DNA from: Squalus acanthias
Lineage: Eukaryota
DNA length: 64,000 bases
NCBI GenBank assembly: GCA_030390025.1
Contig: CM059432.1
Location: forward strand, 29,328,001 to 29,392,000
Direction: 5' to 3'
Each line of letters opens with the position of its first letter. The stretch's first letter is position 1. The position numbers and the translations under genes were made by a program. Under the pieces are notes generated by a model. The model worked only from the letters and a program-made list of their open reading frames with translations. It was not told the origin of the DNA and made no database searches. Positions 9,901 through 57,500 of the stretch are shown in pieces.

Positions 9901-12900
9901 TCACATCATCTCTCAATGTTCAAAATATCAACTCTCAATGTTCAAAATGTGATCTCTCAATTTTCAAAATATCATCTCTCAATGTTCAAAATATCAACTC
10001 CTTAATGTTCACAATATCATTTCTCAATGTTGAAAATATCATCTCTCAACGTTCAAAATATCATCTCTCAATGTTCAAAATATCATCTTTCAATGTTCAA
10101 AATATCACTCAATGTTCAAAATATCATCTCTCAATCTGTTAAAAATAACATTACTCAATGTGGAAAATATCATCAATGTTCAAAATATCATCTCTCAATG
10201 TTCAAAATATCATCAACGTTCAAAATATCATCTCTCAATGTTCAAAATGTTATCTCTCAATGTTCAAAATATCCTCAATGATCAAAATATCATCTCTCAA
10301 TGTTCACAATATCATCAATTTGCAAAATATCATCTCTCAATGTTCAAAATATCATCAAAGTTCAAAATATCATCTGTCAATGTTCAAAACATCATCTCTC
10401 AAAGTTCACAATATCATCTCTCAATGTTCAAAATGTGATCTCTCAATGTTCAAAATATCATCTCTCAATGTTCAAAATATCATCTCTCAATGTTCAAAAT
10501 ATCATCTCTCAATGTTCAAAATATCATCTCTCAATGTTCAAAATATCATCTCTCAATGTTCAAAATATCATCACTCAATGTTCAAAATATCATCTCTCAA
10601 TCTGTTAAAACTCTCATCTCTCAATCTGTTCAATATTTCAGCACTCAATATTCAAAATAACATCACTCAATGTTCAAAATATCATCAATGTGGAAAATAT
10701 CATCAATATTCAAAATAACATCTCTCCATGTTCAAAATATCATCAACGTTCAAAATATCGTCTCTCAATGTTCAAAATGTCATCTCTCAATGTTCAAAAT
10801 ATCCTCAATGATCAAAATATCATCGCTCAATGTTCACAATATCATCAATTTTCCAAATATCATCTCTCAATGTTCAAAATATCATCAAAGTTCAAAATAT
10901 CATCTCTCAATGTTCAAAATATCAACTCTCAAGGTTCACAAATCATCTCGCAATGTTTAAAATATCATCTTTCAATGTTCAAAATATCATCACTCAATGT
11001 TCACAATATCATCACTCAATGTTCAATATATCATCAATGTTCAAAATATCATCACTCAATGTTCTAAAATATCATCTTTCAATGTTCAAAATATCATCTC
11101 TCAATGTTCAAATTATCATCTCTTAATGTTCACATCATCTCTCAATGTTCAAAATATCATCTCTCAATGTTCAAAATATCAACTCTCAATGTTCAAAATG
11201 TGATCTCTCAATTTTCAAAATATCATCTCTCAATGTTCAAAATATTAACTCCTTAATGTTCACAATATCATTTCTCAATGTTGAAAATATCATCTCTCAA
11301 CGTTCAAAATATCATCTCTCAATGTTCAAAATATCATCTTTCAATGTTCAAAATATCATCTCTCAATGTTCAAAATATCATCTCTCAATGTTCAAAATAT
11401 CAACTCTCAATGTTCAAAATGTGATCTCTCAATTTTCAAAATATCATCTCTCAATGTTCAAAATATCAACTCCTTAATGTTCACAATATCATTTCTCAAT
11501 GTTGAAAATATCATCTCTCAACGTTCAAAATATCATCTCTCAATGTTCAAAATATCATCTTTCAATGTTCAAAATATCACTCAATGTTCAAAATATCATC
11601 TCTCAATCTGTTAAAAATAACATTACTCAATGTTCAAAATATCATCAATGTGGAAAATATCATCAATGTTCAAAATATCATCTCTCAATGTTCAAAATAT
11701 CATCAACGTTCAAAATATCATCTCTCAATGTTCAAAATGTTATCTCTCAATGTTCAAAATATCCTCAATGATCAAAATATCATCTCTCAATGTTCACAAT
11801 ATCACTCAATTTGCAAAATATCATCTCTCAATGTTCAAAATATCATCTCTCAATGTTCAAAATATCATCTCTCAATGTTCAAAATATCATCAATTTGCAA
11901 AATATCATCTCTCAATGTTCAAAATATCATCAAAGTTCAAAATATCATCTCTCAATGTTCAAAATATCATCTCTCAATGTTCACAATATCATCAATGTTC
12001 AAAATATCGCTCAATGATCAAAATATCAGCTCTCAACGTTCAAAATATCATCAATGTTCAAAATATCATCTCTCAGTGTTCAAAATATCATCTCTCAATG
12101 TACAAAATATCATCTCTCAATGTTCACAATATCATCAATGTTCAAAATAACGCTCAATGATCAAAATATCAGCTCTCAATGTTCAAAATATCATCAATGT
12201 TCAAAATATCATCTCTCAGTGTTCAAAATATCATCTCTCAATCTGTTAAAAATAACATTACTCAATGTTCAAAATATCATCAATGTGGAAAATATCATCA
12301 ATGTTCAAAATATCATCTCTCAATGTTCAAAATATCATCAACGTTCAAAATATCATCTCTCAATGTTCAAAATGTTATCTCTCAATGTTCAAAATATCCT
12401 CAATGATCAAAATATCATCTCTCAATGTTCACAATATCATCAATTTGCAAAATATCATCTCTCAATGTTCAAAATATCATCTCTCAATGTTCAAAATATC
12501 ATCTCTCAATGTTCAAAATATCATCAATTTGCAAAATATCATCTCTCAATGTTCAAAATATCATCAAAGTTCAAAATATCATCTCTCAATGTTCAAAATA
12601 TCATCTCTTAATGTTCACAATATCATCAATGTTCAAAATATCGCTCAATGATCAAAATATCAGCTCTCAATGTTCAAAATATCATCAATGTTCAAAATAT
12701 CATCTCTCAGTGTTCAAAATATCATCTCTCAATGTACAAAATATTATCACTCAATGTTCAAAATATCATCTTTAAATGGTCAAAATATCATCTCTTAATG
12801 TTCACAATATCATTTCTAAATGTTGAAAATATCATCTCTCAATGTTAAAAATATCATCACTCAATATTCAAAACATCATCTCTCAAAGTTCACAACATCA

Positions 12901-12932
12901 TCTCTCAATGTTTAAAATATCATCTCTCAATG

Positions 12933-13621
12933 GGTATTGGTGAGACCGCACCTGGAGTACTGCATACAGTTTTGGTGTCCATACTTAAGAAAAGACATAC
13001 TTGCTCTCGAGGCAGTACAAAGAAGGTTCACTCGGTTAATTCCGGGGATGAGGGAGTGGACATACGAGGAGAGATTGAGTAGATTGGGACTCTACTCATT
13101 GGAGTTCAGAAGAATGAGAGGCGATCTTATTGAAACATATAAGATTGTGAAGGGGCTTGATCGGGTGGGCGTGGTGAGGATGTTCCCAATGATGGGTGAA
13201 ACTAGAACTAGGGGACATAATCTTAGAATAAGGGGCTCCTCTTTCAAAACTGAGATGAGGAGAAACTTTTTCACTCAGAGGGTAGTGGGTCTGTGGAATT
13301 TGCTACCCCAGGAAGCTGTGGAAGCTACTTCATTAAATAAATTTAAAACAGAAATAGACCGTTTCCTAGAAGTAAAGGGAATCAGGGGTTACGGGGAGCG
13401 GGCTGGAAATTGGACATGAGTTTGAGTTCGGATCGGTCAAGGCCCTGTGGGTGGTGGAGCGGGCCCAGGGACTGAGTGGCCTGGTCCTTCTCCTGCTTCT
13501 TGTGTTCTTTAGAGTTGAGGTTGGACCAGATCAGCCATGATCTCATTGAATGGCGGAGCTGGCTCGAGGGGCCGATTGGTCTACTCCTGCTCCTATTTCT
13601 TATGTTCTTATGATCTTATGT
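12933..13621 (+). mobile_element. CR1 LINE 3' fragment, copy 2
   Basis: Same 689 bp, truncation point and flanks as copy 1 (offset 12717). One visible substitution at 13560. Confidence 0.93.
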
Positions 13622-15452
13622 AATGTTCAAAATATGATCTCTCAATGTTCAAAATAACATCTCTCAATGTTGAAAATATCGACTTTAAATGGTCAAAATA
13701 TCAACCCTTAATGTTCACAATATCATCTCTCAATGTTGAAAATATCATCTCTCAATGTTCAAAATATCACATCTCAATGTTCACAATATCATCTCTCAAT
13801 GTTCAAAATATCATCTCTCAATTTTGAAAATATCATCTTTAAACGGTCAAAATATCATCTCTTAATGTTCACAATATCATCTCTCAATGTTGAAAATATC
13901 ATCTCTCAATGTTCAAAATATCATCTCTCAATGTTCAAAATATCATAAATGTTCAAAATATCATCAATGTTAAAAATATCATCTTTAAAATTTCACAATA
14001 TCATCTCTCAATGTTCAAAATATCATCAATCTTCAAAATGCCATCTCGCAAGGTTCAAAATATCATCAATGTACAAAATATCATCTGTCAATGTTCAAAA
14101 TATCATCAATGATCAAAATATCATCATTGTTCAAAATATCATCACTCTGTTCAAAATATCATCTCTCAATGTTCAAAACATCATCTCTCAAAGTTCACAA
14201 TATCATCTCTCAATGTTCAAAATGTGATCTCTCTGTTCAAAATGTCATCTCTCAATGTTCAAAATATCATCTCTCAATGTTCAAAATGTGATCTCTCAAT
14301 GTTCAAAATATCATATCTCAATGTTCACAATATCATCACTCAATGTTCAAAATATCATCACTCAATCTTCAAAATATCATCTCTCAATCTGTTAAAACTC
14401 TCATCTTTCAATCTGTTCAAAATCTCAGAACTCAATATTCAAAATAACATCACTCAATGTTCAAAATATCATCTCTCAATGTTCAAAATATCATCAATGA
14501 GGAAAATATCATCAATGTTCAAAATAACATCTCTCAATGTTCAAAATATCACCAATGTTCAAAATATCATCTATCAATGTTCAAAATGTCATCTCTCAAT
14601 GTTCAAAATATCCTCAATGAGCAAATTATCATCGCTCAATGTTCACAATATCATCAATTTTCCAAATATCATATCTCAATGTTCAAAATATCATCAAAGT
14701 TCAAAATATCATCTCTCCATGTTCAAAATATCATCACTCAATGTTCACAATATCATCTCTCAATGTTCAAAATATCATCTCTTAATGTTCACATCATCAC
14801 TCAATGTACAAAATATCATCTCTCAATGTTCAAAATATCATCTCTCAATGTTCAAAATATCAACTCTCAATGTTCAATATGTGATCTCTCAATTTTCAAA
14901 ATATCATCTCTCAATGTTCAAAATATCATCTGTCAATGTTCACAATATCATTTCTCAATGTTCAAAATATCATCAATGTTCAAAATATCATCACTCAATG
15001 TTCAAAATATCATTTCTCAATGTTCAAAATATCAGCAATGTTAAAAATATCATCACTCTGTTCAAAATATCATCTCTCAATGTTCAAAATATCATCTCTC
15101 AATGTTCAAAATATCATCTCTCAATGTTGAAAACATCATTTCTCAATGTTCAAAACATCATCTCTCAAAGTTCAAAATATCATCTCTCAATGTACAAAAT
15201 ATCATCTCTCAATGTTAAAAATATCATCAATGTTCCAAATATCATCTCTCAATGTACAAAATATTATCACTCAATGTTCAAAATATCATCTTTAAATGGT
15301 CAAAATATCATCTCTTAATGTTCACAATATCATTTCTAAATGTTGAAAATATCATCTCTCAATGTTAAAAATATCATCACTCAATATTCAAAACATCATC
15401 TCTCAAAGTTCACAACATCATCTCTCAATGTTCAAAATATCATCTCTCAATG

Positions 15453-16141
15453 GGTATTGGTGAGACCGCACCTGGAGTACTGCATACAGTTTTGGTGTCC
15501 ATACTTAAGAAAAGACATACTTGCTCTCGAGGCAGTACAAAGAAGGTTCACTCGGTTAATTCCGGGGATGAGGGAGTGGACATACGAGGAGAGATTGAGT
15601 AGATTGGGACTCTACTCATTGGAGTTCAGAAGAATGAGAGGCGATCTTATTGAAACATATAAGATTGTGAAGGGGCTTGATCGGGTGGGCGTGGTGAGGA
15701 TGTTCCCAATGATGGGTGAAACTAGAACTAGGGGACATAATCTTAGAATAAGGGGCTCCTCTTTCAAAACTGAGATGAGGAGAAACTTTTTCACTCAGAG
15801 GGTAGTGGGTCTGTGGAATTTGCTACCCCAGGAAGCTGTGGAAGCTACTTCATTAAATAAATTTAAAACAGAAATAGACCGTTTCCTAGAAGTAAAGGGA
15901 ATCAGGGGTTACGGGGAGCGGGCTGGAAATTGGACATGAGTTTGAGTTCGGATCGGTCAAGGCCCTGTGGGTGGTGGAGCGGGCCCAGGGACTGAGTGGC
16001 CTGGTCCTTCTCCTGCTTCTTGTGTTCTTTAGAGTTGAGGTTGGACCAGATCAGCCATGATCTCATTGAATGGCGGAGCAGGCTCGAGGGGCCGATTGGT
16101 CTACTCCTGCTCCTATTTCTTATGTTCTTATGATCTTATGT
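15453..16141 (+). mobile_element. CR1 LINE 3' fragment, copy 3
   Basis: Apparently identical to copy 1 at offset 15237, including the flanking satellite variants. Confidence 0.93.
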
Positions 16142-19100
16142 AATGTTCAAAATATGATCTCTCAATGTTCAAAATAACATCTCTCAATGTTCAAAATATT
16201 GACTTTAAATGGTCAAAATATCAACCCTTAATGTTCACAATATCATCTCTCAATGTTGAAAATATCATCTCTCAATGTTCAAAATATCACATCTCAATGT
16301 TCACAATATCATCTCTCAATGTTCAAAATATCATCTCTCAATTTTGAAAATATCATCTTTAAACGGTCAAAATATCATCTCTTAATGTTCACAATATCAT
16401 CTCTCAATGTTGAAAATATCATCTCTCAATGTTCAAAATATAATCTCTCAATGTTCAAAATATCATAAATGTTCAAAATATCATCAATGTTAAAAATATC
16501 ATCTTTAAAATTTCACAATATCATCTCTCAATGTTCAAAATATCATCAATCTTCAAAATGCCATCTCGCAAGGTTCAAAATATCATCAATGTACAAAATA
16601 TCATCTGTCAATGTTCAAAATATCATCAATGATCAAAATATCATCATTGTTCAAAATATCATCACTCTGTTCAAAATATCATCTCTCAATGTTCAAAACA
16701 TCATCTCTCAAAGTTCACAATATCATCTCTCAATGTTCAAAATGTGATCTCTCTGTTCAAAATGTCATCTCTCAATGTTCAAAATATCATCTCTCAATGT
16801 TCAAAATATCATCACTCAATCTTCAAAATATCATCTCTCAATCTGTTAAAACTCTCATCTTTCAATCTGTTCAAAATCTCAGAACTCAATATTCAAAATA
16901 ACATCACTCAATGTTCAAAATATCATCTCTCAATGTTCAAAATATCATCAATGAGGAAAATATCATCAATGTTCAAAATAACATCTCTCAATGTTCAAAA
17001 TATCACCAATGTTCAAAATATCATCTATCAATGTTCAAAATGTCATCTCTCAATGTTCAAAATATCCTCAATGAGCAAATTATCATCGCTCAATGTTCAC
17101 AATATCATCAATTTTCCAAATATCATATCTCAATGTTCAAAATATCATCAAAGTTCAAAATATCATCTCTCCATGTTCAAAATATCATCACTCAATGTTC
17201 ACAATATCATCTCTCAATGTTCAAAATATCATCTCTTAATGTTCACATCATCACTCAATGTACAAAATATCATCTCTCAATGTTCAAAATATCATCTCTC
17301 AATGTTCAAAATATCAACTCTCAATGTTCAATATGTGATCTCTCAATTTTCAAAATATCATCTCTCAATGTTCAAAATATCATCTGTCAATGTTCACAAT
17401 ATCATTTCTCAATGTTCAAAATATCATCAATGTTCAAAATATCATCACTCAATGTTCAAAATATCATTTCTCAATGTTCAAAATATCAGCAATGTTAAAA
17501 ATATCATCACTCTGTTCAAAATATCATCTCTCAATGTTCAAAATATCATCTCTCAATGTTCAAAATATCATCTCTCAATGTTGAAAACATCATCTCTCAA
17601 TGTTCAAAACATCATCTCTCAAAGTTCAAAATATCATCTCTCAATGTACAAAATATCATCTCTCAATGTTAAAAATATCATCAATGTTCCAAATATCATC
17701 TCTCAATGTTCAAAATATCATCTCTTAATGTTCACAATATAACTTCACAATATTGATAATATCATCTCTCAATGTTCAAAGTATCATCTCTCAATGTTCA
17801 AAATATCATCTCTCAATGTTCAAAATATCATCAATGTTCTAAATATCATCTCGCAATGTTCAAAATATCATCCATGTTCAAAATATCATCTCGCAATGTT
17901 TGAAATATCATATCTCAATGTTCACAATATCTTCTCTCAATGTTCAAAATATCATCAAAGTTCAAAATGCCATCTCCCAATGTTGAAAATATCAATGTTC
18001 AAAATGCCATCTTGCAATGTTCCAAATATCATCAATGTTCAAAATATTATCTCTCAATGTTCAAAATATCATCAATGTTCAAAATATCATATCTCAATGT
18101 TCAAAATATCAGCAATGTTCAAAATATCATCTCTCAATGTTCAAAATGTGATCTCTCAATTTTCAAAATATCATCACTCAATGTTCAAAATATCATCTCT
18201 CAATTTTCAAAATATCATCTCTCAATGTTCAAAATATTATCACTCAATGTTCAAAATATCATCTTTAAATGGTCAAAATATCATCTCTTAATGTACACAA
18301 CATCATTTCTCAATGTTGAAAATATCATCTCTCAATGTTCAAAATATTATCTCTCCATGTTCAAAATATCTTCTCTCAATGTTCACAACATCATCTCTCA
18401 ATGTTCAAAATGTGAGCTCGCAATTTTCAAAATATCATCTCTCAATGTTGAAAATATCATCTCTCAATGTTCAAAATGCCATCTCGCAATGTTGAAAATA
18501 TCAATGTTCAAAATGCCATCTCGCAATGTTCAAAATATCATCAATGTTCAAAATATCATCTCTCAATGTTCAAAATATCACCTCTCATCGTTCAAAATAT
18601 CCTCAATGTTGTAAATATCATCAATGTTCAAAATATCCTCAAAGTTCAAAATATCATCTCTCAATGTTCAAAATATTATCACTCAAGGTTCAAAATATCA
18701 TCTCTCAATGTTCACAGTATCATCTCTCAATGTTCAAAATATCATCTGTAGAATTCGCAAAATTATCGCGATTTTATAAAAATAAGAAGGAGACATAAAG
18801 TTTCGTATAAACAGCTTTATTTCAGCAGAATGCTGTCAGTTTTCAAAACGGACACAAACAGCCTGTAAAATGTCCGCCACGCCTCGTGGCAGAAAGTTCT
18901 AGACTTTCAGTAGGCAGACAAGATGGCGTTTCAATAAACATTTCAGCAAGATCGGACAGGACTCAGCACATTTGAGATAATGACAAGACATGATGGGTTT
19001 GCATTTTAAACATAAATACTGGAATCGGTCTTCCAGGTGCAAACAAGGGCTATTGTACTGAGCGATCAAGGACCCATCCAAAGACATTAATATGCAAAAT

Positions 19101-19319
19101 CCCCACGGCTCTACGATGAGAGAGCCGTTCGCGGGTACTCACAGCAAGCATTTGGAAGCTCCAAAACCCCTCCAGGGAGACTACTAGCCGGTTCCACAAT
19201 GGGAGAAATATTAACGGGTACTCAGACAGTTACAAGTGTCACCGAAACCCATTAAAGACTGAGATCACCCCATACAAGAAGTTTTGAGCGCCAAAACCTG
19301 ACAAAAGATAGACATTAAG

Positions 19320-19390
19320 ATTGGGCGGGAAAATAGAAATTACAGCACTATAACTGTAAAGTACAACCGTCCATCTCTCTCTTGCTACTC
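19320..19390 (+). promoter_or_regulatory. Candidate LTR core promoter
   Basis: Inverted CCAAT (ATTGG 19320-19324), GC box (GGGCGG 19323-19328), TATA-like TATAAC at 19349 and a CT-rich tract ~25 bp later. A second TATAA lies at ~19661, so the assignment is ambiguous. Confidence 0.3.
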
Positions 19391-19570
19391 TGACTCGCAG
19401 GAAGGCTGCTGAACTCTTATTCTTTTGCCTGACGACTCTGGACTCTGATCCGCTAGGATCAACCTCGTGGCTTGCCGTGAAGATCTGTGGAGAACTGGGC
19501 TGTGAGGCCTGGAGGCAGGCGCACCATCCCGAGGAGTCGGTAAATGGTGTTGGAACCGAAGGCCCGAGAG

Positions 19571-19605
19571 GAGATGAGATGAGATGAAATGAGATGAGAT
19601 GAGAT
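19571..19605. repeat. (GAGAT)n microsatellite inside the LTR
   Basis: Seven units (one GAAAT) in the 5' LTR versus five in the 3' LTR at ~27218-27242. Confidence 0.9.
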
Positions 19606-20392
19606 GAGAAGAAGACTACACATGTCGCCGCGGTTAGTAAGCCCCGACCGCGCCTAAAAATATAAGGACAATTTTCGAATTCTATCGGCTACTCCACAAC
19701 TGGCCCGAGAAGACTATTCTTCGAGTTCTACCGACAACTGGTGTAGGACACAGGAAGACTCTTTTTTTTGAGTAGTATCAGAACTCCGAGGGCAACACAG
19801 ATCTTCATGACAGCAGACGGTCCAGCCTGCTAGCCGGAGCAGAAGTGAGTAAACAAGTGGGGTACAGAGACCCCTGATCAACACGTGGATAGTCAGGTGC
19901 TGCGGTAAAAACATCCGAGCAGAGTTTCGGAATTCTCCGAGTTATCACGAGTGGTGAGCATGAGTCTCGATCCTACAAATCTAGATTAGGACAGGTATTG
20001 ATAGGGGAGGGTTTTATGTTTTAAGGATAATTATAATGTGTGTCCCCTTTTACGATGTGTCGTGCGCTCCTCGTTTCCCTAAACCTAGTTGCATAAATGT
20101 ATGTAAGTTTGTACTGTCATTAATCTGTGCTTATGACATGTATTTCGTAATCTTGAATAATATGCAATAAAGATTTTCCATTTCGCACTATTCAACCGGG
20201 TCTATCTGAGTTTTCTCTGCATTATTGCTCTCGCACCTAAGTCCAGTGTCAGAACCGTAAGGGCGAGTGGGTCGAACCACTCACAGGTGTCTAGTGTTAC
20301 CAGGCTGGCTGGAGACCAGAACAGGCAACAAGGCCTAACCCCGCACTAACACTCAGGCTAAGCACAGAGCCACACGTCACCCCTTACAGATA

Positions 20393-22218
20393 ATGGCGAC
20401 CACAAAGGGACACTGGCAGCGAGAAAATAATGTGTTAGACCCTGGTATGAATGGGCGAAATGTTATGGAAGAGAGAATAGCCGATTATGTTTTTGGAAAA
20501 GTGAATTTGACTAAGAGATGGATAAGTGACCTGCTGGTGGATAAGCGTCCACTAGAGGCAGCCGTGAGGTGGACAGGCAGCAAGGAACATAAAAAAACTG
20601 TAGAGAAAGCGGTCTGGCTGATGTGCTATAAAAGACAAGTCCAGCTTTCGGACCAGGTCATTACAGCGCAGGCAGCTCAGATCAAGGGTTTAGAGGTGGA
20701 AATGGACGAGAAGGTCGCAGGGGGGGCAGCAGCTCATCGCGTCTTTAAATGCGTTGCATCAAGAATGCCAGTTAGTGCCCAACCACTATGAGGCGAAAAT
20801 AGATTACCTCGAGTGCCAGGTCACTGAGGCAAAGTTAAATGAGGGCAGAATAAGGGAACGATGTGCCCGCCTAGCTGCTCAAATAAAAGCCCAGGAAGAG
20901 AGCTTAACGGGGGTTAGGGCGGCATATAAGATGGCCCTCGAGGATAAACATGAGGGGGCCGATCACAGCGTCTGCCAAAGAGAGATAGGGAACCTTAAAG
21001 AGGCCCTGAATAAAGCGCACGGCATGGTGTGCCTTATCAGCCCGTCAGCACACCAGCCGCCGGTGGGTGGGGAATTTCAAAAATCCCTACCGAACAAAGC
21101 AGAGGAGGTATTTGCCACTGTGCCCTCCGCGCCACCCAGCTATTCGGCAACCTGGATAAGGGAGGAAGTGGTAGAAGTAGAGGAAGAGGTCCCCGAGGTA
21201 GTACAGCCCCCTGAAGTAGTAGCGAAGCCGGGACCGTTGTGTCCGGTCACGGGTATCAAAAGGGGCCCGGCCGGAGAAAATGGGGAAGCGGGGAATCTCC
21301 TCAACCAACTTGTGTTGCCTCACAGCTCACACCAGCTGAGGGCTATGATCAGTCACGTACGGAAGCTGGTCCGAGTCAGACGACCCTTCCGTACATTTCA
21401 GGGAGGTAGAGCAGACCGCAGCCATTAACGGCTGCGACGATGGGGAAAAGGCTAGAATGCTGCTGTTCTCCTTAGACAGCTCGATCCTCCAGTGTCTCTC
21501 AGACGCGAGTAAAAGGGGTGATAAGACCTATGAGGAGTTAAGAGATGAGGTCCTAGAAGTGTTGGGGGCGGACGACGAAGGTCCGTTTGTGAGATTGGGA
21601 CAGACTATGCAGATGGAGGGAGAACCCCCGAAGGTTTTCGCCGACAGGCTGTGGCCTGTCTATCAGCGTAGCTGCCCAGGTGCGCCAGCGCGCGACGATC
21701 TGGACGGTGTCGGTTTAGCTCATTGGCTCAGATGTATAGTAGCCAACAGCTTGCCAGCCGTGAGGGAGCAGGCCAAAGCGTGGTTTGATCCCACTAACCC
21801 CGCCAAAACAGAGGAGTCGGTCCTAAATCGACTCACGGTCGGGTACCGTAATACCAGGAGTACGGGAGCACGTCCCCTTAAGGGAAAGGTGCATGAGGCG
21901 CGGCCCACAGCCCCGGCTCAAAAGGAGTGGCATCAGGAGGGAAATCGCGTCCCACAGGCCAGTAATGCTTGTTTCGGATGCGGAAAGACAGGGCACTGGC
22001 GCAAGAACTGCAGGAATCCTTGGAAGGAGTCCAGGGATAAAAATCCCGCAGTCCAAGCCCAGGCGCCTGTCTCTGATAGGGGAGCTGGTGTGCCTATCCA
22101 TCCCGATGCGATCGAATCAATGTTGGGAGCCATGCGCACCCTCATGATTTCGCAAGGAAGGGTGGCAGTCGCTACCGGCCCCGCAGATGCCGCAGCCCCG
22201 TCCAACAGTACCCAATGA
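20393..22218 (+). pseudogene. gag: Gag-like polyprotein (~580-607 aa), broken by two single-base insertions
   Basis: ORFs 20393-20791, 20754-21428 and 21457-22218 join if one G is removed in the G7 run (20720-20726) and one at ~21369. Features: N-terminal coiled coil, PSAPPSY (21123-21143), capsid-like DPSVHFREVE...EKARMLL and MHR-like QMEGEPPKVFADRL, and CFGCGKTGHWRKNC (21970-22011). The true start may be ATG 20447 or 20465 because 20393 overlaps the PBS. Confidence 0.88.
20394..20411 (+). promoter_or_regulatory. Primer-binding site, tRNA-Arg type
   Basis: TGGCGACCACAAAGGGAC lies 5 nt after the LTR. It matches the complement of the vertebrate tRNA-Arg(TCG) 3' end (TGGCGACCACGAAGGGAC, recalled from memory) at 17/18 positions. 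Confidence 0.8.
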
Positions 22219-22222
22219 CTAG
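22213..22222 (+). promoter_or_regulatory. Putative stop-codon readthrough signal CAA-TGA-CTAG
   Basis: The Gag stop TGA (22216-22218) is followed by CTAG, an established leaky-stop context, and by 231 in-frame sense codons. Confidence 0.75.
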
Positions 22223-23297
22223 AGCCCGCGCAGCCTGCCTACCTGTGTCCCTTTAAAAGACATGCACAGGAGGGGGTCTCCTGTAAGGAGGCCAGGTTAA
22301 AAGAGCAGGCCTTACGGGAGGAGAACGCCCGCTTAATGGGGAAAATAGATGGGCTAGAAGCGCAGCTTAGAGACATAAAAGCAGCCTACAGGGTAGCCAG
22401 GAGCAGGGAGTATGAGGATTTAAAACAGAATAGAAATCTGCAGCCTCCAGCAGGTGAGATTTCACAGAATGCACAAGCAGGGGCGGTGGCCTGTGTTAGG
22501 GGAGGGGCCAAACCTGCGAGTGGGGACTCGCAGCCCCGGGTAGGCCCACAGGGCACACAGGCAGGCAAAGCAGCTTGCATCAGGGGAGAGGACATCCTAG
22601 CAAAATGTAGGATCCTTTATTTGGGTTGGGAGTCAGATGAGGAAGAGTTCGAGGAGCTCGACCAAGATAGTGACACAAGCGAAGAGGAGCTGGAATCGGA
22701 GGACGAAAGGGTCGCCCCCGATTCAGGTAAAGGGGAGACAGGGGCTGCAGATAGAGATCCACACAGGGTGGAAGCCGAAGCTGCAGGTCCCGAACGCAGG
22801 GGGGCGGAGCTAGGCGAGGCGGAGCCAGCCGCTGTGGTGGGACCACAGGGCGTGGCGATGGAAGCCTCAGAGCCCGAGCCGCCCGCCTTGAACGTCTTGC
22901 CTCGAATGAGGTAGGGACTGCAAGTGAAGGGCCGCCTACTGGGCCAAGTAGGGCGGTGCCACAAGCTGCAGATCCCGAGTTCAGGGAGGCGGAGTCAGGG
23001 GAGGCGGAGCCAGCGACTGTGGTGGGACCACAGGTCGCCACGGTGGAAGTCTCGGAACCCGGTCCGTCAGTCCTGGAGTTCCTGCCCCCGGTAGTTCCCC
23101 GTAGGTCAAGTCGGAAACCCCAGCCCAGAAAGATGTGGGTAAGTCCCCCGTATGTCCCTAGGCATAGGTCCAGGGCTAAGGCAGCCCAGGGAGAGCCCAG
23201 TCACAGCGCAGCAGCAACAGGCTGCGGCAGACCAAAGGGAGGGGTCAATGCCCTCCCACCATTGGGAGAAGCCTGCGGCAGCAACCGCAGAATTTGA
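22219..23297 (+). CDS. Gag-frame extension in the pol position (coiled coil, acidic/Pro-rich repeats, basic tail); one frameshift at ~22900
   Basis: Open in the gag frame from 22219 to 22914. A -1 shift near 22900 continues into the frame of ORF 22956-23297, which carries the second copy of the same peptide repeat. No protease, RT, RNase H or integrase motif seen. Confidence 0.6.
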
Positions 23298-23587
23298 GTA
23301 GGCCGCCCTGGGAACGGGCGGCACTGTACAGTTATAAGATAAGTGATAAGTTTATAAGTTTATAAGTTCAAGTTTATAGTTTTAAATCAGGTTAAGTTTG
23401 TAGTTTAATTTTAACAGAAAATGGTAAAATGATGGGAGTTTTAGAGATAGGAATAGTTAAAGTCTATCCAGCGCACATGTCTTCTTACGTGAGGCGAGGT
23501 CAGGGGACCCGCTCACCCTTCACAAAAGCCAGAGACTCTTGGGAGGCTGGCTACCTCATTCTATCTGATCACAGGAACCAAGGAAGG

Positions 23588-25939
23588 ATGGAACGGATTC
23601 TGGTAGTGCTCGCGGCAATCGGATGTGGACTGGCCTATCGAGGCCGCACCAAGGATGTCGTGGTGTTTGGATGCTCCGGGGACACGGCCCCCATCACGGT
23701 GGATGGGACCGGAAGGCGAGAGGCTGAGGAGACCGCCACCTACTTCCACAAGGGAAGGTGGCCAGGATGGCTGGGAACGAATTCAACTGAATATTCCAGT
23801 ACATCGGGATTTGCCTATAAAGAGACTTCTTTAATGTGCCCCAAAGTGAGGATCATCGCACCCAGAGTCAGCGTCACCGTCGGCAAATGGATTTGTTTGA
23901 CTTGTAATGGGAATGTCCCATTGAGCCGATGGTGGTGGCTACGAAAGCTGAGCAAAAACATGAGGAACTCTTCGGTCGAGTGGGAGCGACTGGGTAATAA
24001 TACCCATCGGACAATTACGGGGACTTACGGACAATTGAGAGTCTGTTGGGACAAATGGTGGGAACCGGATGAGGGAATTTATGTATGTATGTGGGGGTCA
24101 AAGCACGTTTGCCCCAAAGGCATCTCCATATTTTTCATCAATCAGTGGCAGGATAATGGGAAAGGGATGAGGTGGGATGCAAGCACCAGGGGGTGCGGGG
24201 CTCCATACTCTCTGATCCCGGTAAATGCCACTGAACTCATTACGCGCCCACGCAAGGCCCCACCCACAATTCCGGTGGTTCTAGCTAAGGAAGAAGGGTG
24301 CCCAAAAAGCAGTAAGGGACCCGGGAATGGTTTGGTACTGGTCCCTACAGACCAGCTATTATTTCAGGGGGTACATTATGCGGTGGCCTCAGTGATTTTA
24401 AACCTCACCGAGGTGCGGTTGCCGGAGTGGTGCCCCAAAGAGACGGAACGGTTATATCAGGTCCTGTTGACCAAGATGTTTAGGCAATTTTATGAGTTCG
24501 ATTTCGCGGAAATTGATAAAACAAGTTTGTACACCGCACCACATGAAGTTTTGGGTCAGGTGGGGAGACAAAGAAGGGGTGTTGTGAACGACATGTTCAC
24601 TGCTTTCAATACAGGTACATCTGTGGTCAACGCTCTAGACAGCGTGGAGCTGCAGACCCAGATTAATGGTTTGAAAACTTAATTAAAGGATATTCTTACA
24701 GACGAAAATAAGGTGGTTGGGTCTGGGTTACATGAGGACCAGGCCATGACTCTCCATTTAAAAGAAATCATAGCTGAACTAGAGAAACATGCGCGTACGG
24801 TAAATGCCCTGATCAGGGAAGATCGGAATGCGTCCGATCAGGCTGTGCAGAATGAGGTGTGCGTGCTTTATGGGGCGTGGTTACTGGGCGAGGGCCGCAG
24901 TAATTTGGAGGATTTAAAACAAGGTTTGGTCCCGTCCTGGATAAGTAACAAACACCTGCAGGCGCTCCACCCTTTTCAGAACGCATTAAGTCCGTGCCAG
25001 CTCAGGCTAGCTTCAGAAGCATACCCAGTCCCCGTGGACTGCGGACGATCAAACCACACCATTATGGGTGTAGTTTTACGTATGCCGGTTTTGGGCGACA
25101 CAGCAAAGCCCGCCCCGGTATATCGGGTAGAGAACATTGGTGTCATTCAGGGGGGAGCCCACATTCGCTATGCAGCGGTTCCACCTTACGTCATCCGCTG
25201 GGAGCAAACGATGACAGGTACAGATCTCTCTGGTTGTCGTAGCTGGGGAGCACACATAATCCTGTGTCCCCAGCACTTGAATGCCTTTTTAACACCACAG
25301 TGCGGGTTCAGAACGGCTGGCGCCAAGCCCATGAATTGCACCATGGAGGCAATGGCACAAGATCATGTGCCTCTGCAGGTAGCATACATCGGGGGTGGAA
25401 CATATTGTGTTACCACTGCAGCGCAACACTACCAGCATGGAAACCGGAGCCGGTGTCCGGTGAGTGACAGCAGTTTTTGTTTTAAACCCAGGGCTGAAGT
25501 TCAAGTGGCACAGCAGCGAATTGTCCCGATCCCTGAACCATCCACTGTTCATCTTACAGTAAAAGAGAACTTCACCGACTTGCAGCGATTCGTCGCGCAT
25601 TTCGGATACCTCATTCCCCCTCTCCCTGAACACCTCACCAAGCTTTTGAAAGCCGTCGCGGTATCGCAAAAACATTTTTACACCCTAGAACAAAAGACTG
25701 TCGAGATAGGGACAGAAATTCTAGACATAGTAATTCCACCGTGGTGGGATCTGTTCACCAACATTGAAGTGCCTTCCTGGATTAGAATAGCCTCCCACAT
25801 TTTAGTTGTATGCCAAGTGTTTATTGTGATATACTTATTGGTCGTGCATTGTAAGAGAGGCAAACGCCTCACCAAGAACGAAAACACGGGAGAGTGGCGA
25901 GAGCGTTACGTGCGCGTGCACGAAGAAAGCACCGCGTAA
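23588..25939 (+). pseudogene. env: Env-like class I fusion glycoprotein (783 codons) with one in-frame stop (TAA 24680-24682)
   Basis: ATG in AGGATGG context 14 nt after an acceptor-like pyrimidine tract/CAG (23574). Signal peptide MERILVVLAAIGCGLA, furin site RQRR (24566-24577), fusion-peptide-like GVVNDMFTAFNTG, heptad region, Cys-rich core, about ten N-glycosylation sequons, Trp-rich membrane-proximal region, TM helix (~25787-25851) and a YVRV tail. ORFs 23429-24682 and 24713-25939 share a frame. Confidence 0.88.
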
Positions 25940-26381
25940 ACAGACAAAATGGCGTCACTCCAGTTTTTTCCACGTGCGCCTCGGAATTGTTGTAATCGAT
26001 CGTGATTTTTTTCTCAGAAACTGTAATTAAGTTTGGAACTCTACATGTTTAAGAGTTGGTTTTGATTATTTTGGTTTGGTGTTGTTGAATATGGTTGTTT
26101 GGTTGTATTTTTTTGGTTTTCTTTTTCCTTGAATAAAAAAAATATGCATATGCAGGTGGTGCGAGAGGCATCGGCCTGGTTACACCTGGAAGGAAATACA
26201 CGCGGTGTAAGTTGAAGGCAAATGCTGCCTACGGTGTTATAAGGATGTCATTTTCCTGGGAAATAAGGACGACACGGAGACCCTAGATAGTTTTAAGTTA
26301 TGGGAATTTTTGGATATAGAGAATCGAGATAATATTGCTCACCACAATGTTTCTGATACGATAAGCGGAGTTATTCGCATC

Positions 26382-26393
26382 AACAGGAGGGAC
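26382..26393 (+). promoter_or_regulatory. Polypurine tract
   Basis: AACAGGAGGGAC immediately before the TG of the 3' LTR. Confidence 0.75.
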
Positions 26394-28024
26394 TGTAGAA
26401 TTCGCAAAATTATCGCGATTTTATAAAAATAAGAAGGAGACATAAAGTTTCGTATAAACAGCTTTATTTCAGCAGAATGCTGTCAGGTTTCAAAACGGAC
26501 ACAAACAGCCTGTAAAATGGCCGCCACGCCTCGTGGCAGAAAGTTCTAGACTTTCAGTAGGCAGACAAGATGGCGTTTCAATAAACATTTCAGCAAGATC
26601 GGACAGGACTCAGCACATTTGAGATAATGACAAGACATGATGGGTTTGCATTTTAAACATAAATACTGGAATCGGCCTTCCAGGTGCAAACAAGGGCTAT
26701 TGTACTGAGCGATCAAGGACCCATCCAAAGACATTAATATGCAAAATCCCCACGGCTCTACGATGAGAGAGCCATTCGCAGGTACTCACAGCAAGCATTT
26801 GGAAGCTCCAAAACCCCTCCAGGGAGACTACTAGCCGGTTCCACAATGGGAGAAATATTAACGGGTACTCAGACAGTTACAAGTGTCACCGAAACCCATT
26901 AAAGACTGAGATCACCCCATACAAGAAGTTTTGAGCGCCAAAACCTGACAAAAGATAGACATTAAGATTGGGCGGGAAAATAGGAATTACAGCACTATAA
27001 CTGTAAAGTACAACCGTCCATCTCTCTCTTGCTGGTCTGACTTGCTGGAAGGCTGCTGAACTCTTATTCTTTTGCCTGACGACTCTGGACTCTGATCCGC
27101 TAGGATCAACCTCGTGGCTTGCCGCGAAGATCTGTGGAGAACTGGGCTGTGAGGCCTGGAGGCGGGCGCACCATCCCGAGGAGTCGGTAAACGGTGTTGG
27201 AACCGAAGGCCCGAGAGGAGATGAGATGAGATGAGATGAGATGAGAAGAAGACTACACGTGTCGCCGCAGTTAGTAAGCCCCGACCGCGCCTAAAAATAT
27301 AAGGACCATTTTCGAATTCTATCGGCTACTCCACAACTGGCCCGAGAAGACTATTCTTCGAGTTCTACCGACAACTGGTGTAGGACACAGGAAGACTCTT
27401 TTTTTGAGTAGTATCAGAACTCCGAGGGCAACACAGATCTTCATGACAGCAGACGGTCCAGCCTGCTAGCCGGAGCAGAAGCGAGTAAACAAGTGGGGTA
27501 CAGAGACCCCTGATCAACACGTGGATAGTCAGGTGCTGCGGTAAAAACATCCGAGCAGAGTTTCGGAATTCTCCGAGTTATCACGAGTGGTGAGCATGAG
27601 TCTCGATCCTACAAATCTAGATTAGGACAGGTATTGATAGGGGAGGGTTTTATGTTTTAAGGATAATTATAATGTGTGCCCCCTTTTACGATGTGTCGTG
27701 CGCTCCTCGTTTCCCTAAACCTAGTTGCATAAATGTATGTAAGTTTGTACTGTCATTAATCTGTGCTTATGACATGTATTTCGTAATCTTGAATAATATG
27801 CAATAAAGATTTTCCATTTCGCACTATTCAACTGGGTCTATCTGAGTTTTCTCTGCATTATTGCTCTCGCACCTAAGTCCAGTGTCAGAACCGTAAGGGC
27901 GAGTGGGTCGAACCACTCACAGGTGTCTAGTGTTACCAGGCTGGCTGGAGACCAGAACAGGCAACAAGGCCTAACCCCGCACTAACACTCAGGCTAAGCA
28001 CAGAGCCACACGTCACCCCTTACA
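26394..28024 (+). repeat. 3' LTR (1631 bp)
   Basis: Differs from the 5' LTR by roughly 20 substitutions (counted by eye), two fewer GAGAT units and one fewer T. AATAAA at 27802-27807. Confidence 0.96.
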
Positions 28025-31000
28025 ATCAATGTTCAAAATATCATCTCACAACGTTCACAATATCATCAATGTTCAAAATATCATCTGTCAGTGTTCAAAA
28101 TATCTCTCAATGTAGAAAATATCATCAATATTCAACATATCATCTCTCAATGTTCAAAACTTCAATGTTCAAAATTTCATCGCTCAATTTTCAAAATATC
28201 ATCTCTCAATGTTCAAAATATTATCACTCAATGTTCAAAATATCATCTTTAAATGGTCAAAATATCATCTCTTAATGTTCACAATATAATTTCTCAATAT
28301 TGATAATATCATAACTCAATGTTCAAAATATCAGCAAAGTTCAAAATATCATCTCTAAATGTTCAAAATATCATCTCTCAATGTTCAAAATATCATCACT
28401 CAATGTTCAAAATATCATCTCTCAATTTTCAAAATATCATCTCTCAATGTTCAAAATATTATTACTCAATTTTCAAAATATCATCTTTAAATGGTCAAAA
28501 TATCATCTCTTAATGTACACAATATCATCTCTCAATTTTGAGAACATCATCTCTCAATGTTCAAAATATCATCTCTCAATATATAAAATATCATTTCTCA
28601 ATGTTAAAAATATCATCAATGTTCAAAATATCATCTCTCAATGTTCAAAATAGCATCTCTCAATGTTCAAAATATCATCTCTCAATGTTCAAAAAATCAT
28701 CTCTCAAAGTTCAAAATATCATCTCTCAATGTTCAAAATATCATCTCTCAATTTTCAAAATATCATCTCTCAATGTTCAAAATATTATTACTCAATTTTC
28801 AAAATATCATCTTTAAATGGTCAAAATATCATCTCTTAATGTACACAATATCATTTCTCAATGTTGAAAATATCATCTCTCAATGTTCAAAATATCATCT
28901 CTCCATGTTCAAAATATCATCACTCAATGTTCAAAAAATCATCTCTCAATGTTCAAAATATCATCACTCAATGTTCAAAATATCATCACTCAATTGTTCA
29001 AAATATCATCTCTCAATATTCATAATATCGTCACTCAATGTTCAAAATATCATCTCTCAATGTTTAAAATATCATCAATGTTAAAAATATCATCACTCTG
29101 TTCAAAATATCGTCTCTCAATGTTCAAAATATCATCTCTCAACGTTGAAAACATCATCTCTCAATGTTCAAAATATCATCTCTCAATGTATAAAATATCA
29201 TCTCTCAATGTTAAAAATATCATCAATGTTCCAAATATCATCTCTCAATGTTTAAAATATCATCAATGTTCAAAATATCATCTCTCAATATTCAAAATAT
29301 CATCTCTCATTGTTCAAAATATCCTCAATGTTGTAAATATCATCAATGTTCATATTAGCCTCAAATTTCAAAATATCATCTCTCAATGTTCAAAATATCA
29401 TCAATGTTAAAAATATCATCACTCTGTTCAAAATATCATCACTCAATGTTCAAAATATCATCTCTCAATGTTCAAAATATCATCAATGTTAAAAATATCA
29501 TCACTCTGTTCAAAATATCATCTCTCAATGTTCAAAATATCATCTCTCAATGTTCAAAACATCATCTCTCAAAGTTCAAAATATCATCTCTCAATGTTCA
29601 AAATATCATCTCTCAATGTTAAAAATATCATCAATGTTCCAAATATCATCTCTCAATGTCCAAAATATCATCTCTTAATGTTGACAATATCATTTCTCAA
29701 TATTGATAATATCATATCTCAATGTTCAAAATATCAGCAATGTTCAAAATATCATCTCTCAATGTTCAAAATATCATCTCTCAATGTTCAAAATATCATC
29801 TCTCAATGTTCAAAATATTCTTACTCAATTTTCAATATATCATCTTTAAATGGTCAAAATATCATCTCTTAATGTACACAATATCATTTCTCAATGTTGA
29901 AAATATCATCTCTCAATGTTCAAAATATCATCACTCAATGTTCAAAATATCATCTCTCAATGTTCAAAATATCATCTCTCCATGTTCAAAATATCATCAC
30001 TCAATGTTCAAAAAATCATCTCTCAATGTTCAAAATATCATCACTCAATTGTTCAAAATATCATCTCTCAATTTTCATAATATCGTCACTCAATGTTCAA
30101 AATATCATCTCTCAATGTTCAAAATATCATCAATGTTAAAAATATCATCACTCTGTTCAAAATATCATCTCTCAATGTTCAAAATATCATCTCTCAATGT
30201 TGAGATCATCATCTCTCAATGTTCAAAATATCATCTCTCAATGTTAAAAATATCATCAATGTTCAAAATATCATCTCTCAATGTTCAAAATAGCATCTCT
30301 TACTGTTCACAATATCATTTCTCAATGTTAAAAATATCATCAATGCTCAAAATATCATCTCTCAATGTTTAAAATATCATCAATGTTCAAAATATCTTCT
30401 CTCAATATTCAAAATATCATCTCTCATTGTTCAAAATATCATCTCTCAATGGTGAAAACATCATCTCTCAATGTTCAAAACATCATCTCTCAAAGTTGAA
30501 AATATCATCTCTCAATGTACAAAATATCATCTCTCAATGTTAAAAATATCATCAATATTCCAAATATCATCTCTCAATGGTCAAAATATTATCAATGTTC
30601 AAAATATCATCAATGTTCAAAATATCATCTTTCAATGTTCACAATATCATTTCTCAATGTTGAAAATATCATCTCCCAATGTTCAAAATATCATCTCTCC
30701 ATGTTCAAAATATCATCACTCAATGTTCAAAAAATCATCTCTCAATGTTCAAAATATCATCACTCAATGTTCAAAATATCATCACTCAATTGTTCAAAAT
30801 ATCATCTCTCAATGTTCATAATATCGTCACTCAATGTTCAAAATATCATCTCTCAATGTTCAAAATATCATCTCTCAATGTTGAGATCATCATCTCTCAA
30901 TGTTCAAAATATCATCTCTCAATGTTAAAAATATCATCAATGTTCAAAATATCATCTCTCAATGTTCAAAATAGCATCTCTTACTGTTCACAATATCATT

Positions 31001-34000
31001 TCTCAATGTTAAAAATATCATCAATGCTCAAAATATCATCTCTCAATGTTTAAAATATCATCAATGTTCAAAATATCTTCTCTCAATATTCAAAATATCA
31101 TCTCTCATTGTTCAAAATATCATCTCTCAATGGTGAAAACATCATCTCTCAATGTTCAAAACATCATCTCTCAAAGTTGAAAATATCATCTCTCAATGTA
31201 CAAAATATCATCTCTCAATGTTAAAAATATCATCAATATTCCAAATATCATCTCTCAATGGTCAAAATATTATCAATGTTCAAAATATCATCAATGTTCA
31301 AAATATCATCTTTCAATGTTCACAATATCATCTCTCAATGTTCAAAATATTATTACTCAATTTTCAAAATATCATCTTTAAATGGTCAAAATATCATCTC
31401 TTAATGTACACAATATCATTTCTCAATGTTGAAAATATCATCTCTCAATGTTCAAAATATCATCTCTCCATGTTCAAAATATCATCACTCAATGTTCAAA
31501 AAATCATCTCTCAATGTTCAAAATATCATCACTCAATGTTCAAAATATCATCACTCAATTGTTCAAAATATCATCTCTCAATGTTCATAATATCGTCACT
31601 CAATGTTCAAAATATCATCTCTCAATGTTTAAAATGTCATCAATGTTAAAAATATCATCACTCTGTTCAAAATATCGTCTCTCAATGTTCAAAATATCAT
31701 CTCTCAATTTTGAGAACATCATCTCTCAATGTTCAAAATATCATCTCTCAATATATAAAATATCATTTCTCAATGTTAAAAATATCATCAATGTTCAAAA
31801 TATCATCTCTCAATGTTCAAAATAGCATCTCTCAATGTTCAAAATATTATTACTCAATTTTCAAAATATCATCTTTAAATGGTCAAAATATCATCTCTTA
31901 ATGTACACAATATCATTTCTCAATGTTGAAAATATCATCTCTCAATGTTCAAAATATCATCTCTCTATGTTCAAAATATCATCACTCAATGTTCAAAAAA
32001 TCATCTCTCAATGTTCAAAATATCATCACTCAATGTTCAAAATATCATCACTCAATTGTTCAAAATATCATCTCTCAATATTCATAATATCGTCACTCAA
32101 TGTTCAAAATATCATCTCTCAATGTTTAAAATATCATCAATGTTAAAAATATCATCACTCTGTTCAAAATATCGTCTCTCAATGTTCAAAATATCATCTC
32201 TCAATGTTGAAAACATCATCTCTCAATGTTCAAAATATCATCTCTCAATGTATAAAATATCATCTCTCAATGTTAAAAATATCATCAATGTTCCAAATAT
32301 CATCTCTCAATGTTTAAAATATCATCAATGTTCAAAATATCATCTCTCAATATTCAAAATATCATCTCTCATTGTTCAAAATATCCTCAATGTTGTAAAT
32401 ATCATCAATGTTCATATTAGCCTCAAATTTCAAAATATCATCTCTCAATGTTCAAAATATCATCAATGTTAAAAATATCATCACTCTGTTCAAAATATCA
32501 TCACTCAATGTTCAAAATATCATCTCTCAATGTTCAAAATATCATCAATGTTAAAAATATCATCACTCTGTTCAAAATATCATCTCTCAATGTTCAAAAT
32601 ATCATCTCTCAATGTTCAAAACATCATCTCTCAAAGTTCAAAATATCATCTCTCAATGTTCAAAATATCATCTCTCAATGTTAAAAATATCATCAATGTT
32701 CCAAATATCATCTCTCAATGTCCAAAATATCATCTCTTAATGTTGACAATATCATTTCTCAATATTGATAATATCATATCTCAATGTGCAAAATATCAGC
32801 AATGTTCAAAATATCATCTCTCAATGTTCAAAATATCATCTCTCAATGTTCAAAATATCATCTCTCAATTTTCAAAATATCATCTCTCAATGTTCAAAAT
32901 ATTCTTACTCAATTTTCAATATATCATCTTTAAATGGTCAAAATATCATCTCTTAATGTACACAATATCATTTCTCAATGTTGAAAATATCATCTCTCAA
33001 TGTTCAAAATATCATCTCTCCATGTTCAAAATATCATCTCTCAATGTTCAAAATAGCATCTCTTACTGTTCACAATATCATTTCTCAATGTTAAAAATAT
33101 CATCAATGCTCAAAATATCATCTCTCAATGTTTAAAATATCATCAATGTTCAAAATATCTTCTCTCAATATTCAAAATATCATCTCTCATTGTTCAAAAT
33201 ATCATCTCTCAATGGTGAAAACATCATCTCTCAATGTTCAAAACATCATCTCTCAAAGTTGAAAATATCATCTCTCAATGTACAAAATATCATCTCTCAA
33301 TGTTAAAAATATCATCAATATTCCAAATATCATCTCTCAATGGTCAAAATATTATCAATGTTCAAAATATCATCAATGTTCAAAATATCATCTTTCAATG
33401 TTCACAATATCATCTCTCAATGTTCAAAATATTATTACTCAATTTTCAAAATATCATCTTTAAATGGTCAAAATATCATCTCTTAATGTACACAATATCA
33501 TTTCTCAATGTTGAAAATATCATCTCTCAATGTTCAAAATATCATCTCTCCATGTTCAAAATATCATCACTCAATGTTCAAAAAATCATCTCTCAATGTT
33601 CAAAATATCATCACTCAATGTTCAAAATATCATCACTCAATTGTTCAAAATATCATCTCTCAATGTTCATAATATCGTCACTCAATGTTCAAAATATCAT
33701 CTCTCAATGTTTAAAATGTCATCAATGTTAAAAATATCATCACTCTGTTCAAAATATCGTCTCTCAATGTTCAAAATATCATCTCTCAATTTTGAGAACA
33801 TCATCTCTCAATGTTCAAAATATCATCTCTCAATATATAAAATATCATTTCTCAATGTTAAAAATATCATCAATGTTCAAAATATCATCTCTCAATGTTC
33901 AAAATAGCATCTCTCAATGTTCAAAATATTATTACTCAATTTTCAAAATATCATCTTTAAATGGTCAAAATATCATCTCTTAATGTACACAATATCATTT

Positions 34001-52120: not shown

Positions 52121-52129
52121 GTTTTAAGT

Positions 52130-54658: not shown

Positions 54659-54886
54659 AATGTCTCTTAATGTCTCTTAATCTCTCCTGCCTTCCATCTA
54701 GAGCCATCTTTTGTTTCTTAACTTGTCCCATTACCATCTCCTTTTGCCTTGCACCATCTCTTAATGTCTCTTAATCTCTCCTGCCTTCTATCCTATCACA
54801 GACCTTCCCTTTTGTTCTTTCCTCCCCTCCCCCCTTTCCCTGCCCCTGCACTTGCTTAAAAACCTGTTCGATCTCCAGCTTTTTCC

Positions 54887-54923: not shown

Positions 54924-54989
54924 CTGTTTCTCTCTCCACAGATGCTGCCTGACCTGCTGAGTATTTCCAGCATTTTCTGTTTTTATTTC

Positions 54990-57456: not shown

Positions 57457-57500
57457 GTAGAGGGGATTTCAACTCCTGGACGATTGGCCAGCAGAACTCT

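Follow-up and report, generated by a model that had tools for sequence, protein, structure and literature searches.

Pol-less gag-env copies of a probable snakehead-retrovirus-like endogenous retrovirus in the genome of Squalus acanthias

The element and its internal frames

We analysed a 64,000-nucleotide stretch of the Squalus acanthias genome (contig CM059432.1 of assembly GCA_030390025.1, positions 29,328,001 to 29,392,000; the window), in which a long terminal repeat (LTR) element at 18747-28024 interrupts a 22-bp satellite. The element carries gag and env and, where most of pol would be expected, a short coiled-coil cassette. All its features lie on the forward strand (+):

18747..20388, +, 5' LTR of backbone type 1, by LTR comparison
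20393..22218, +, gag, with an N-terminal coiled coil, an acidic/proline region, the capsid and one CCHC knuckle
20394..20411, +, primer-binding site (PBS) for tRNA-Arg(TCG) with 1 mismatch, by the tRNA gene of the same genome
22219..22250, +, first 11 protease-frame codons, in frame with gag
22251..22502, +, pol-replacing cassette, long form (coiled coil)
22503..23297, +, C-terminal tail of pol, non-enzymatic, acidic and proline-rich, common to the pol-bearing relatives
23588..25939, +, env, with a signal peptide, an N-terminal extension, an F-type fusion core, an RQRR cleavage site and a transmembrane segment
~26382..26393, +, short polypurine tract (PPT)
26394..28024, +, 3' LTR, by LTR comparison
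905..18746, no strand, left part of the 22-bp satellite array (insertion target)
28025..51497, no strand, right part of the 22-bp satellite array

The LTRs have the ends TG...CA and differ from each other by 19 mismatches and 4 gap events (Kimura two-parameter distance [K2P] of 0.0118 across 1,632 columns). The PBS lies 5 bases past the LTR and can pair at 17/18 positions with the 3' terminus of a tRNA-Arg(TCG) gene in the host genome. The gag frame is broken near 20.7 kb and again near 21.36 kb, and it ends in TGA followed by CTAG; the reading frame behind gag is broken once, near 22.9 kb inside the pol tail, and env contains one internal stop (24680-24682). Across the seven open frames of the element, Pfam yielded a zinc knuckle (E 0.0014, plus weak matches) and no protease (PR), reverse transcriptase (RT), RNase H (RH) or integrase (IN). 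An earlier, sequence-only reading of the window had described ~99% identical 1.6-kb LTRs with a PBS and a PPT, near-intact gag and env, and no enzyme domains, all of which was borne out. The 1.4 kb between gag and env, in which it had likewise seen no enzymes, indeed lacks them; this spacer is not neutral filler, being an open frame in line with gag in which the 11 protease codons are followed by a piece derived from gag and then by the pol tail.

The PBS overlaps an ATG in the gag frame. Two PBS variants occur among the copies described below, one of which fits the tRNA-Arg(TCG) gene found in the genome.

Pol-less and pol-bearing copies in the genome

Searching the genome with the gag-env spacer returned two kinds of match, pol-less and pol-bearing. 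In 9/10 copies of the pol-bearing kind, ~3.65 kb separated the sequences that correspond to window positions 22250 and 22503; the remaining copy was 5'-truncated, yet contained RT. Pfam identified RVP, RVT_1, the RT_RNaseH tether, RNase_H, H2C2 and rve in the ~3.65-kb segment. These copies, the helpers, have the layout LTR-gag-pol-env-LTR with the order PR-RT-RH-IN, as in Retroviridae, and their tether (a degenerate RH; PF17917/PF17919, at 470-602) is followed by a second RNase H (PF00075, at 650-792). The cassette, ~250 bp in its long form, occupies the place of the helper PR-RT-tether-RH-IN. In contrast, pol was present in none of 40 other cassette copies: all 20 found by the spacer search aligned straight across the junction, and all 20 found by a cassette search had 0 bp of pol. 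As these copies were chosen by their likeness to the window, the 40/40 shows that cassette and pol are mutually exclusive and does not give a population frequency.

Exact junction patterns matched the 3.7-Gb genome 1,319 times for the pol-less type and 1,297 + 106 (1,403) times for the pol type, with 0 matches for reversed controls; the counts are lower bounds, 36/41 read pol-less copies having matched their pattern. The pol-type count combines two patterns, the first of which missed a T variant (9/20 read helpers matched) that the second covers, and a pol-type junction is no proof of a whole pol. Median LTR divergence (K2P), with copies of <500 aligned LTR bases dropped, was 0.011 for both pol-less (n=24) and pol-bearing (n=14) copies (p=0.79). 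Thus, the same enzyme-destroying lesion is found in many independent insertions, alongside a coeval helper that shares its cis-elements, as in a non-autonomous subfamily. The window copy is probably a dead-on-the-spot member of such a subfamily, belonging to a snakehead retrovirus (SnRV)-like endogenous retrovirus (ERV) in an elasmobranch. The earlier proposal of a pol-less family that relies on a helper has held up in that the family is multicopy and its pol-bearing relative shares LTR types, PBS and env. The element had also been called young. The term is relative because it depends on the shark clock: the window copy would be ~3 Myr (million years) old at 2.2e-9 per site and year and ~27 Myr old at 2.2e-10, the rate assumed for sharks in PMC4422223.

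A one-off deletion after insertion, or an assembly artefact in the satellite array, could produce a single locus of this kind, and here the satellite segments around the window copy are recently duplicated and the target-site duplication is imperfect (3 shared bases). However, the exact pol-less junctions are spread over many contigs, the 40 further copies, all with the same pol-less layout, are dispersed with unrelated flanks, and contigs of independent public runs also contain the cassette together with its 69-bp duplication. A one-off deletion is thereby refuted, and we regard the explanation as a whole as next to impossible. In contigs of four public runs that span the element, no env splice joint was seen; the RNA status of these runs is a guess, and coverage in them is no evidence of transcription. 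A clean 4-bp target-site duplication was present in 5/9 copies tested. The satellite was also considered as a preferred insertion target and rejected, since it was found at 0/80 other loci (flanks of a few hundred bases).

Within the satellite, a 3' fragment of a CR1-like long interspersed nuclear element (LINE) occurs three times (218-904, ~12935-13620 and 15455-16142), and the satellite around these fragments is 99.6-100% identical, which marks recent segmental duplication within the array. The region 51500-64000 holds nested CR1-type LINE fragments and, judging from translations, what we take to be a decayed Harbinger-like transposase frame (60167-61009, minus strand) with a presumably Myb-like neighbour (59485-59808). 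Elsewhere in the genome, proviruses form tandem arrays with shared LTRs at ~7.2-7.7-kb spacing (G000:C1:143657928-143673390 and G000:C6:35639492-35654237), and a truncated helper copy (L027:2-865) lies a few kb from a host G-protein-coupled-receptor-like frame, which we take to be protease-activated-receptor-like.

Trees of LTR, gag and env each separated two types, every one of which included pol-less and pol-bearing copies. The two backbones are ~82% alike overall (79-84% in the LTR U5, the gag N-terminus and the tail), and the cassette is 89-99% alike across both. Monophyly of the helpers in the gag capsid tree was rejected (approximately unbiased [AU] test, p=0.003; 12 changes of state). 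Among 40 copies, 20 combined a type-2 backbone with the long cassette, 17 a type-1 backbone with a shorter cassette that rejoins pol at the integrase end, and 3 were crossed; this split by backbone is sharpened by the two samples having been drawn with different probes. The window copy is itself crossed, with a long cassette on a type-1 backbone. Since the cassette sits on two backbones that each have their own helpers, it moves by recombination, and the simplest reading, we infer, is one old replacement event followed by recurrent template switches involving the helper that was active at the time. Between type-1 and type-2 helpers, RT is 96% and IN 95% identical, the gag N-terminus 83% and the pol tail 81%; the enzymes are thus shared or conserved between helper backbones while the flanks diverge.

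The end of gag also separates the two forms. Pol-less copies had a gag C-terminus of their own in 22/41 cases, compared with 0/20 helper loci, and this end was in frame with the knuckle in 20/25 copies read. Helpers have UGA-CUAG at the gag end, and many pol-less copies UGA-CUGG; in DNA letters, TGA-CTAG is presumably a read-through context. A pattern joining the helper-type junction to the pol-less gag end, which would miss the T variant, matched the genome once, at a copy that was itself pol-less. Another pol-less copy (L140), which is more diverged, has its own cassette and its own gag-end variant, suggesting that the cassette predates the two main backbones. The genome also holds at least two more distant sister families (L130-L139; 5,551 first-look candidates with the sister-family probe), with capsids 46-55% identical and the same UGA-CUAG gag end.

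The coiled coil of the cassette is 40% identical in amino acids to the gag of its own family and 40-51% to sister-family gag in the genome. A single in-frame event in this lineage exchanged pol for a coiled-coil piece derived from gag, which now runs into the pol tail. The read-through frame is uninterrupted in 28/41 copies, and its length variants (347, 358 and 370 amino acids) are all in frame. Comparing nonsynonymous with synonymous changes (N/S) in shared and singleton variants, as explained for gag and env below, gave 15/10 versus 25/7 for the cassette, which is not significant (p=0.16), and an odds ratio (OR) of 1.0 for the pol tail, no signal of constraint. With its frame kept and its amino acid sequence not, the read-through product is probably a spacer or RNA stabiliser and not a new enzyme.

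In the mechanism that we propose, ribosomes reading through the UGA that ends gag would yield helper Gag-Pol, pol-less RNA would be packaged with it, and the helper enzymes would reverse-transcribe and integrate that RNA. Pol-less RNA would also recombine with helper RNA by template switching, whereby the cassette would change its backbone and the flanking gag and env would be refreshed. Less firmly, templates with a working gag (through cis-preference in packaging), and perhaps env, may be favoured, and for that reason lesions in gag and env would not be shared between copies.

Selection on gag and env of pol-less copies

Selection was assessed by comparing variants shared among copies, which predate insertion, with singletons, which are mostly later than insertion; CpG changes were kept apart. 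In env, N/S was 46/204 for shared variants versus 213/83 for singletons (39 pol-less copies), and in gag 111/188 versus 137/54 (40 pol-less copies). No non-CpG stop was shared in either gene, compared with 14 singleton stops in env and 11 in gag. Similarly, env had no indel common to three or more copies and had 26 single frameshifts, and two non-coding controls had 7 and 6 shared frameshifting indels. Apparent shared frameshifts were seen twice in gag and once in the read-through frame; two were alignment effects (an alternative gag end and the 69-bp duplication), and the remaining one lies near gag base 260 in 5 copies. Since the shared variants bear the mark of purifying selection and env has no shared lesions, the templates of these copies had working gag and env. 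Today gag is unbroken in 12, env in 7 and both in 1 of 41 copies, some at loci that are cut short; so few intact copies are as expected from decay after insertion.

Most of the shared variation is common to both forms: 34 of the 250 shared env variants in pol-less copies are private, i.e., absent from all helpers read, and the rest occur in helpers as well. Private variants had N/S of 12/22 in env (OR 0.21, p=5e-5) and 28/24 in gag (OR 0.46, p=0.019). Within one backbone type, the OR for env was 0.39 (p=0.054) and 0.36 (p=0.068), and that for gag 0.18 in type 1 (p=9e-5) and 0.59 in type 2 (p=0.17). The helpers read were 20 of ~1,400, and variants counted as private may stem from the others. 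Most of the purifying signal may therefore come from the helper, and what is confined to pol-less copies is no more than suggestive.

How much the pol-less form does for itself can be read in two ways. It is quite possible that it is a pure hitch-hiker, its RNA using helper Gag, Pol and Env and its own gag and env looking conserved through template-switch copying. The predominance of variants also present in helpers and the intermixed trees agree with this, as does the lack of significant selection in the cassette, the sole coding piece independent of the helper, and in the tail. However, trans-complemented families gather shared stops and deletions, as described for the canid CfERV-Fc1 (PMC6407205) and the bovine D-type (PMC10924933); none was seen in env here, and the private gag end stays in frame.

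Alternatively, the pol-less form could be a true satellite virus that both produces and depends on Gag and Env of its own, takes nothing but Pol from the helper and reinfects the germline extracellularly. The synonymous bias of private variants in env and gag, the lack of any shared non-CpG stop, and the in-frame gag C-terminus that was absent from helper loci, its sole match beside a helper-type junction having proved pol-less, all point this way. Yet the env signal drops to borderline p values within backbones, that in gag is significant in type 1 alone, the private variants may belong to unread helpers, and a single copy has both genes uninterrupted, so we consider this explanation doubtful. 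A broader version, which we think unlikely, sees the cassette as a persistent selfish module, which survived the virus it came from and now moves from one helper backbone to another; the pol-less form would then supply its own Gag, its own F-type Env and a read-through Gag-coiled-coil-acidic-tail protein that competes inside the shell with helper Gag-Pol, and would borrow only enzymes.

Retroviral lineage and known systems

Among named viruses, the helper RT scored highest with SnRV (253 bits, 41% identity), followed by foamy viruses (≤187), gammaretroviruses (≤179) and gypsy-type elements (≤144); unnamed amphibian and coelacanth Pols scored higher still, up to 314 bits. The virus labels are our own assignments, some of them made by matching supplement rows of the lokiretrovirus paper. 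A scan of viral contigs yielded one relative, the IMG/VR record L052, which we identify as SnRV from an RT identical to the SnRV row of that supplement. In a 32-row RT tree rooted on 10 gypsy-type rows, the helper fell on the retrovirus side with support of 100/100; the tree is a subset of 78 rows, of which 46 near-duplicate or long-branch rows were dropped, and it has no lokiretrovirus, Odin or epsilon rows. The layout is also that of SnRV: a coiled-coil gag with one CCHC knuckle, an in-frame stop before pol and a homologous env. By sequence comparison, the helper RT is retroviral, with SnRV the closest among the sampled viruses. The unusual lineage outside known retroviruses that the sequence-only reading had suggested is not upheld.

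Other candidates are a lokiretrovirus like the zebrafish Bhikhari elements, which was our first reading and would have extended the lokiretroviruses to cartilaginous fish, and an env-bearing Gypsy element. The F-type env, the N-terminal coiled coil of gag, the tether with a second RH and language-model features of the capsid, which resemble Ty3, would all agree with one or other of these, and the closest named Pols (RT-RH matches) are automatically annotated 'NYNRIN-like'. However, by eye, the helper RT reads LPQGF where 24/24 lokiretrovirus rows (supplementary data set S2 of PMC7947760) read PFG, and it reads APTV, as in SnRV, where most of these rows have RWP or GWP. In addition, a coelacanth match (P0005) is distinct from Loki-Lch, the gag layout and env recur in SnRV, and Metaviridae (Gypsy) are excluded by the dual RH and by the placement of the helper in the RT tree. 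Either assignment now appears very improbable.

Several points weigh against the interpretation of the window copy as a helper-mobilised member of an SnRV-like family, beyond the choice of copies by likeness noted above. The 32-row tree put the helper RT in an unresolved deep grade; no grouping with SnRV appeared in it, and the AU test allowed such a grouping (p=0.19) as well as a basal position (p=0.25). The gag is only weakly similar to that of SnRV (best E 0.008). A search for the exact cassette donor gave nothing closer than 51% amino acid and 67% nucleotide identity (10 of the 150 matches to a sister-family gag probe were read), and an exact pattern placing the cassette start behind a different upstream context had 0 genome matches. 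Finally, mobilisation by helper enzymes is inferred from retrovirus biology.

A predicted Env structure (mean predicted local distance difference test [pLDDT] score of 60, core 80-95) matched the fusion protein (F) of human parainfluenza virus 3 (Foldseek E 1e-11), that of Newcastle disease virus (VIA Z 11.1, root-mean-square deviation 22, 322 residues aligned) and foamy virus Env (Z 7.6, root-mean-square deviation 6.1, 283 aligned). In BFVD, it matched walleye epidermal hyperplasia virus 1 (WEHV-1; E 3e-11) and walleye dermal sarcoma virus (WDSV; E 6e-8), and an env profile matched SnRV env (Prob 88, E 3e-6). Pfam found nothing in the env pieces, and an env alignment profile had no match under E 0.08 among PDB sequences; because such sequence-profile searches found nothing, the F assignment rests on folds. 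These models support a paramyxo/pneumovirus F fold with a basic cleavage site in Env. The N-terminal extension (window 23588-24300) contains β-strands in the model (residues ~124-177, pLDDT 50-65). The only named env relatives belong to a skate, at 76%, and to a sawshark, at 54-58%.

The sequence-only reading had held that a Gypsy-like capsid together with an F-type env lies outside classic ERVs. The F fold is supported by the models. The capsid resemblance is a lead only: language-model features gave matches to Retrotrans_gag/Ty3_capsid at 0.93-0.95, our own model had a pLDDT of 42, and a PDB profile search matched the knuckle alone. Since F-type env also occurs in SnRV, WDSV, WEHV-1 and foamy viruses, it does not place the family outside Retroviridae and is not exclusive to lokiretroviruses. 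From the models, an F fold may be widespread among the envelopes of fish retroviruses; a literature search found no paper stating the F fold for SnRV Env. The class Ib fusion core is common to the shark Env, foamy Env and paramyxo/pneumovirus F (PMC11468914; PDB 1ztm, 3maw and 8rm0), from which the shark Env differs by its 7-16% sequence identity and by an extra, poorly modelled N-terminal part of ~250 residues. The SnRV-type Env would be a further retroviral envelope built on the paramyxovirus F fold.

Apart from RT, the family resembles SnRV in a gag of ~625 amino acids with a coiled coil and one CCHC, an in-frame stop before pol and a similar protease start. It differs from it at the gag end (UAG-GGCG in SnRV; UGA-CUAG in shark helpers or UGA-CUGG in many pol-less copies), and in its 1.6-kb LTRs, long acidic pol tail and ~2,700 proviruses. 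SnRV-like ERVs have been described across vertebrates ('clade Huo'; PMC6001957) and in the elephant shark (CmiERV lineage I; PMC4422223). No pol-less gag+env form of SnRV-like ERVs, or this shark family, was found in the literature searched; Dfam and Repbase lay outside that search, and a prior entry there is possible.

Lokiretroviruses share with the shark family an F-like env with an RXKR-type site, a coiled coil before the capsid, and a tether plus RH, and differ in their RT signature; in PMC7947760, they are reported from 0/6 chondrichthyan genomes (Fig. S1). Their RT is sister to that of Retroviridae, and their integrase is closest to CGIN1/NYNRIN. Zebrafish Bhikhari Bik-1 and Bik-2 (10.1101/2024.03.25.586437) are likewise pol-less, with gag intact, and recently mobile with a helper. 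They differ in being lokiretroviruses that have gag only and no env, with no helper reported for Bik-1; the shark form keeps env, and its helpers are equally numerous.

In most defective ERV subfamilies, env or the entire gene set has been lost. Bovine ERVK[2-1-LTR] C/D, mouse MusD/ETn and koala KoRV-A/RecKoRV (PMC10924933) also have a central segment swapped for an old retroelement piece with flanking gag/env parts kept, and likewise spread by trans-complementation with pervasive recombination. Their defective forms are reported to have no intact genes, the bovine D-type lacking any intact open reading frame. The shark form, in contrast, inserted with gag and env open over their whole length, both genes show purifying selection, and the swapped-in piece continues the gag frame beyond the stop codon. 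CfERV-Fc1 (PMC6407205) works alike and, unlike the shark form, accumulates shared stops and deletions.

Helper-dependent ERV subfamilies are known already, and no new class of element is revealed here. What sets the shark subfamily apart from known defective families is that gag and env are kept open throughout and free of shared lesions, and that the foreign piece is fused in frame. With its helpers, it documents a recent, large-scale entry of a deep-branching SnRV-like retrovirus into the germline of an elasmobranch. Enzyme-only loss with gag and env open, at ~1:1 with the helper, makes the ~2,700 proviruses a natural data set for studying selection on the particle proteins of defective elements, the rate of recombination with helpers and the curbing of an ERV invasion by its parasites.

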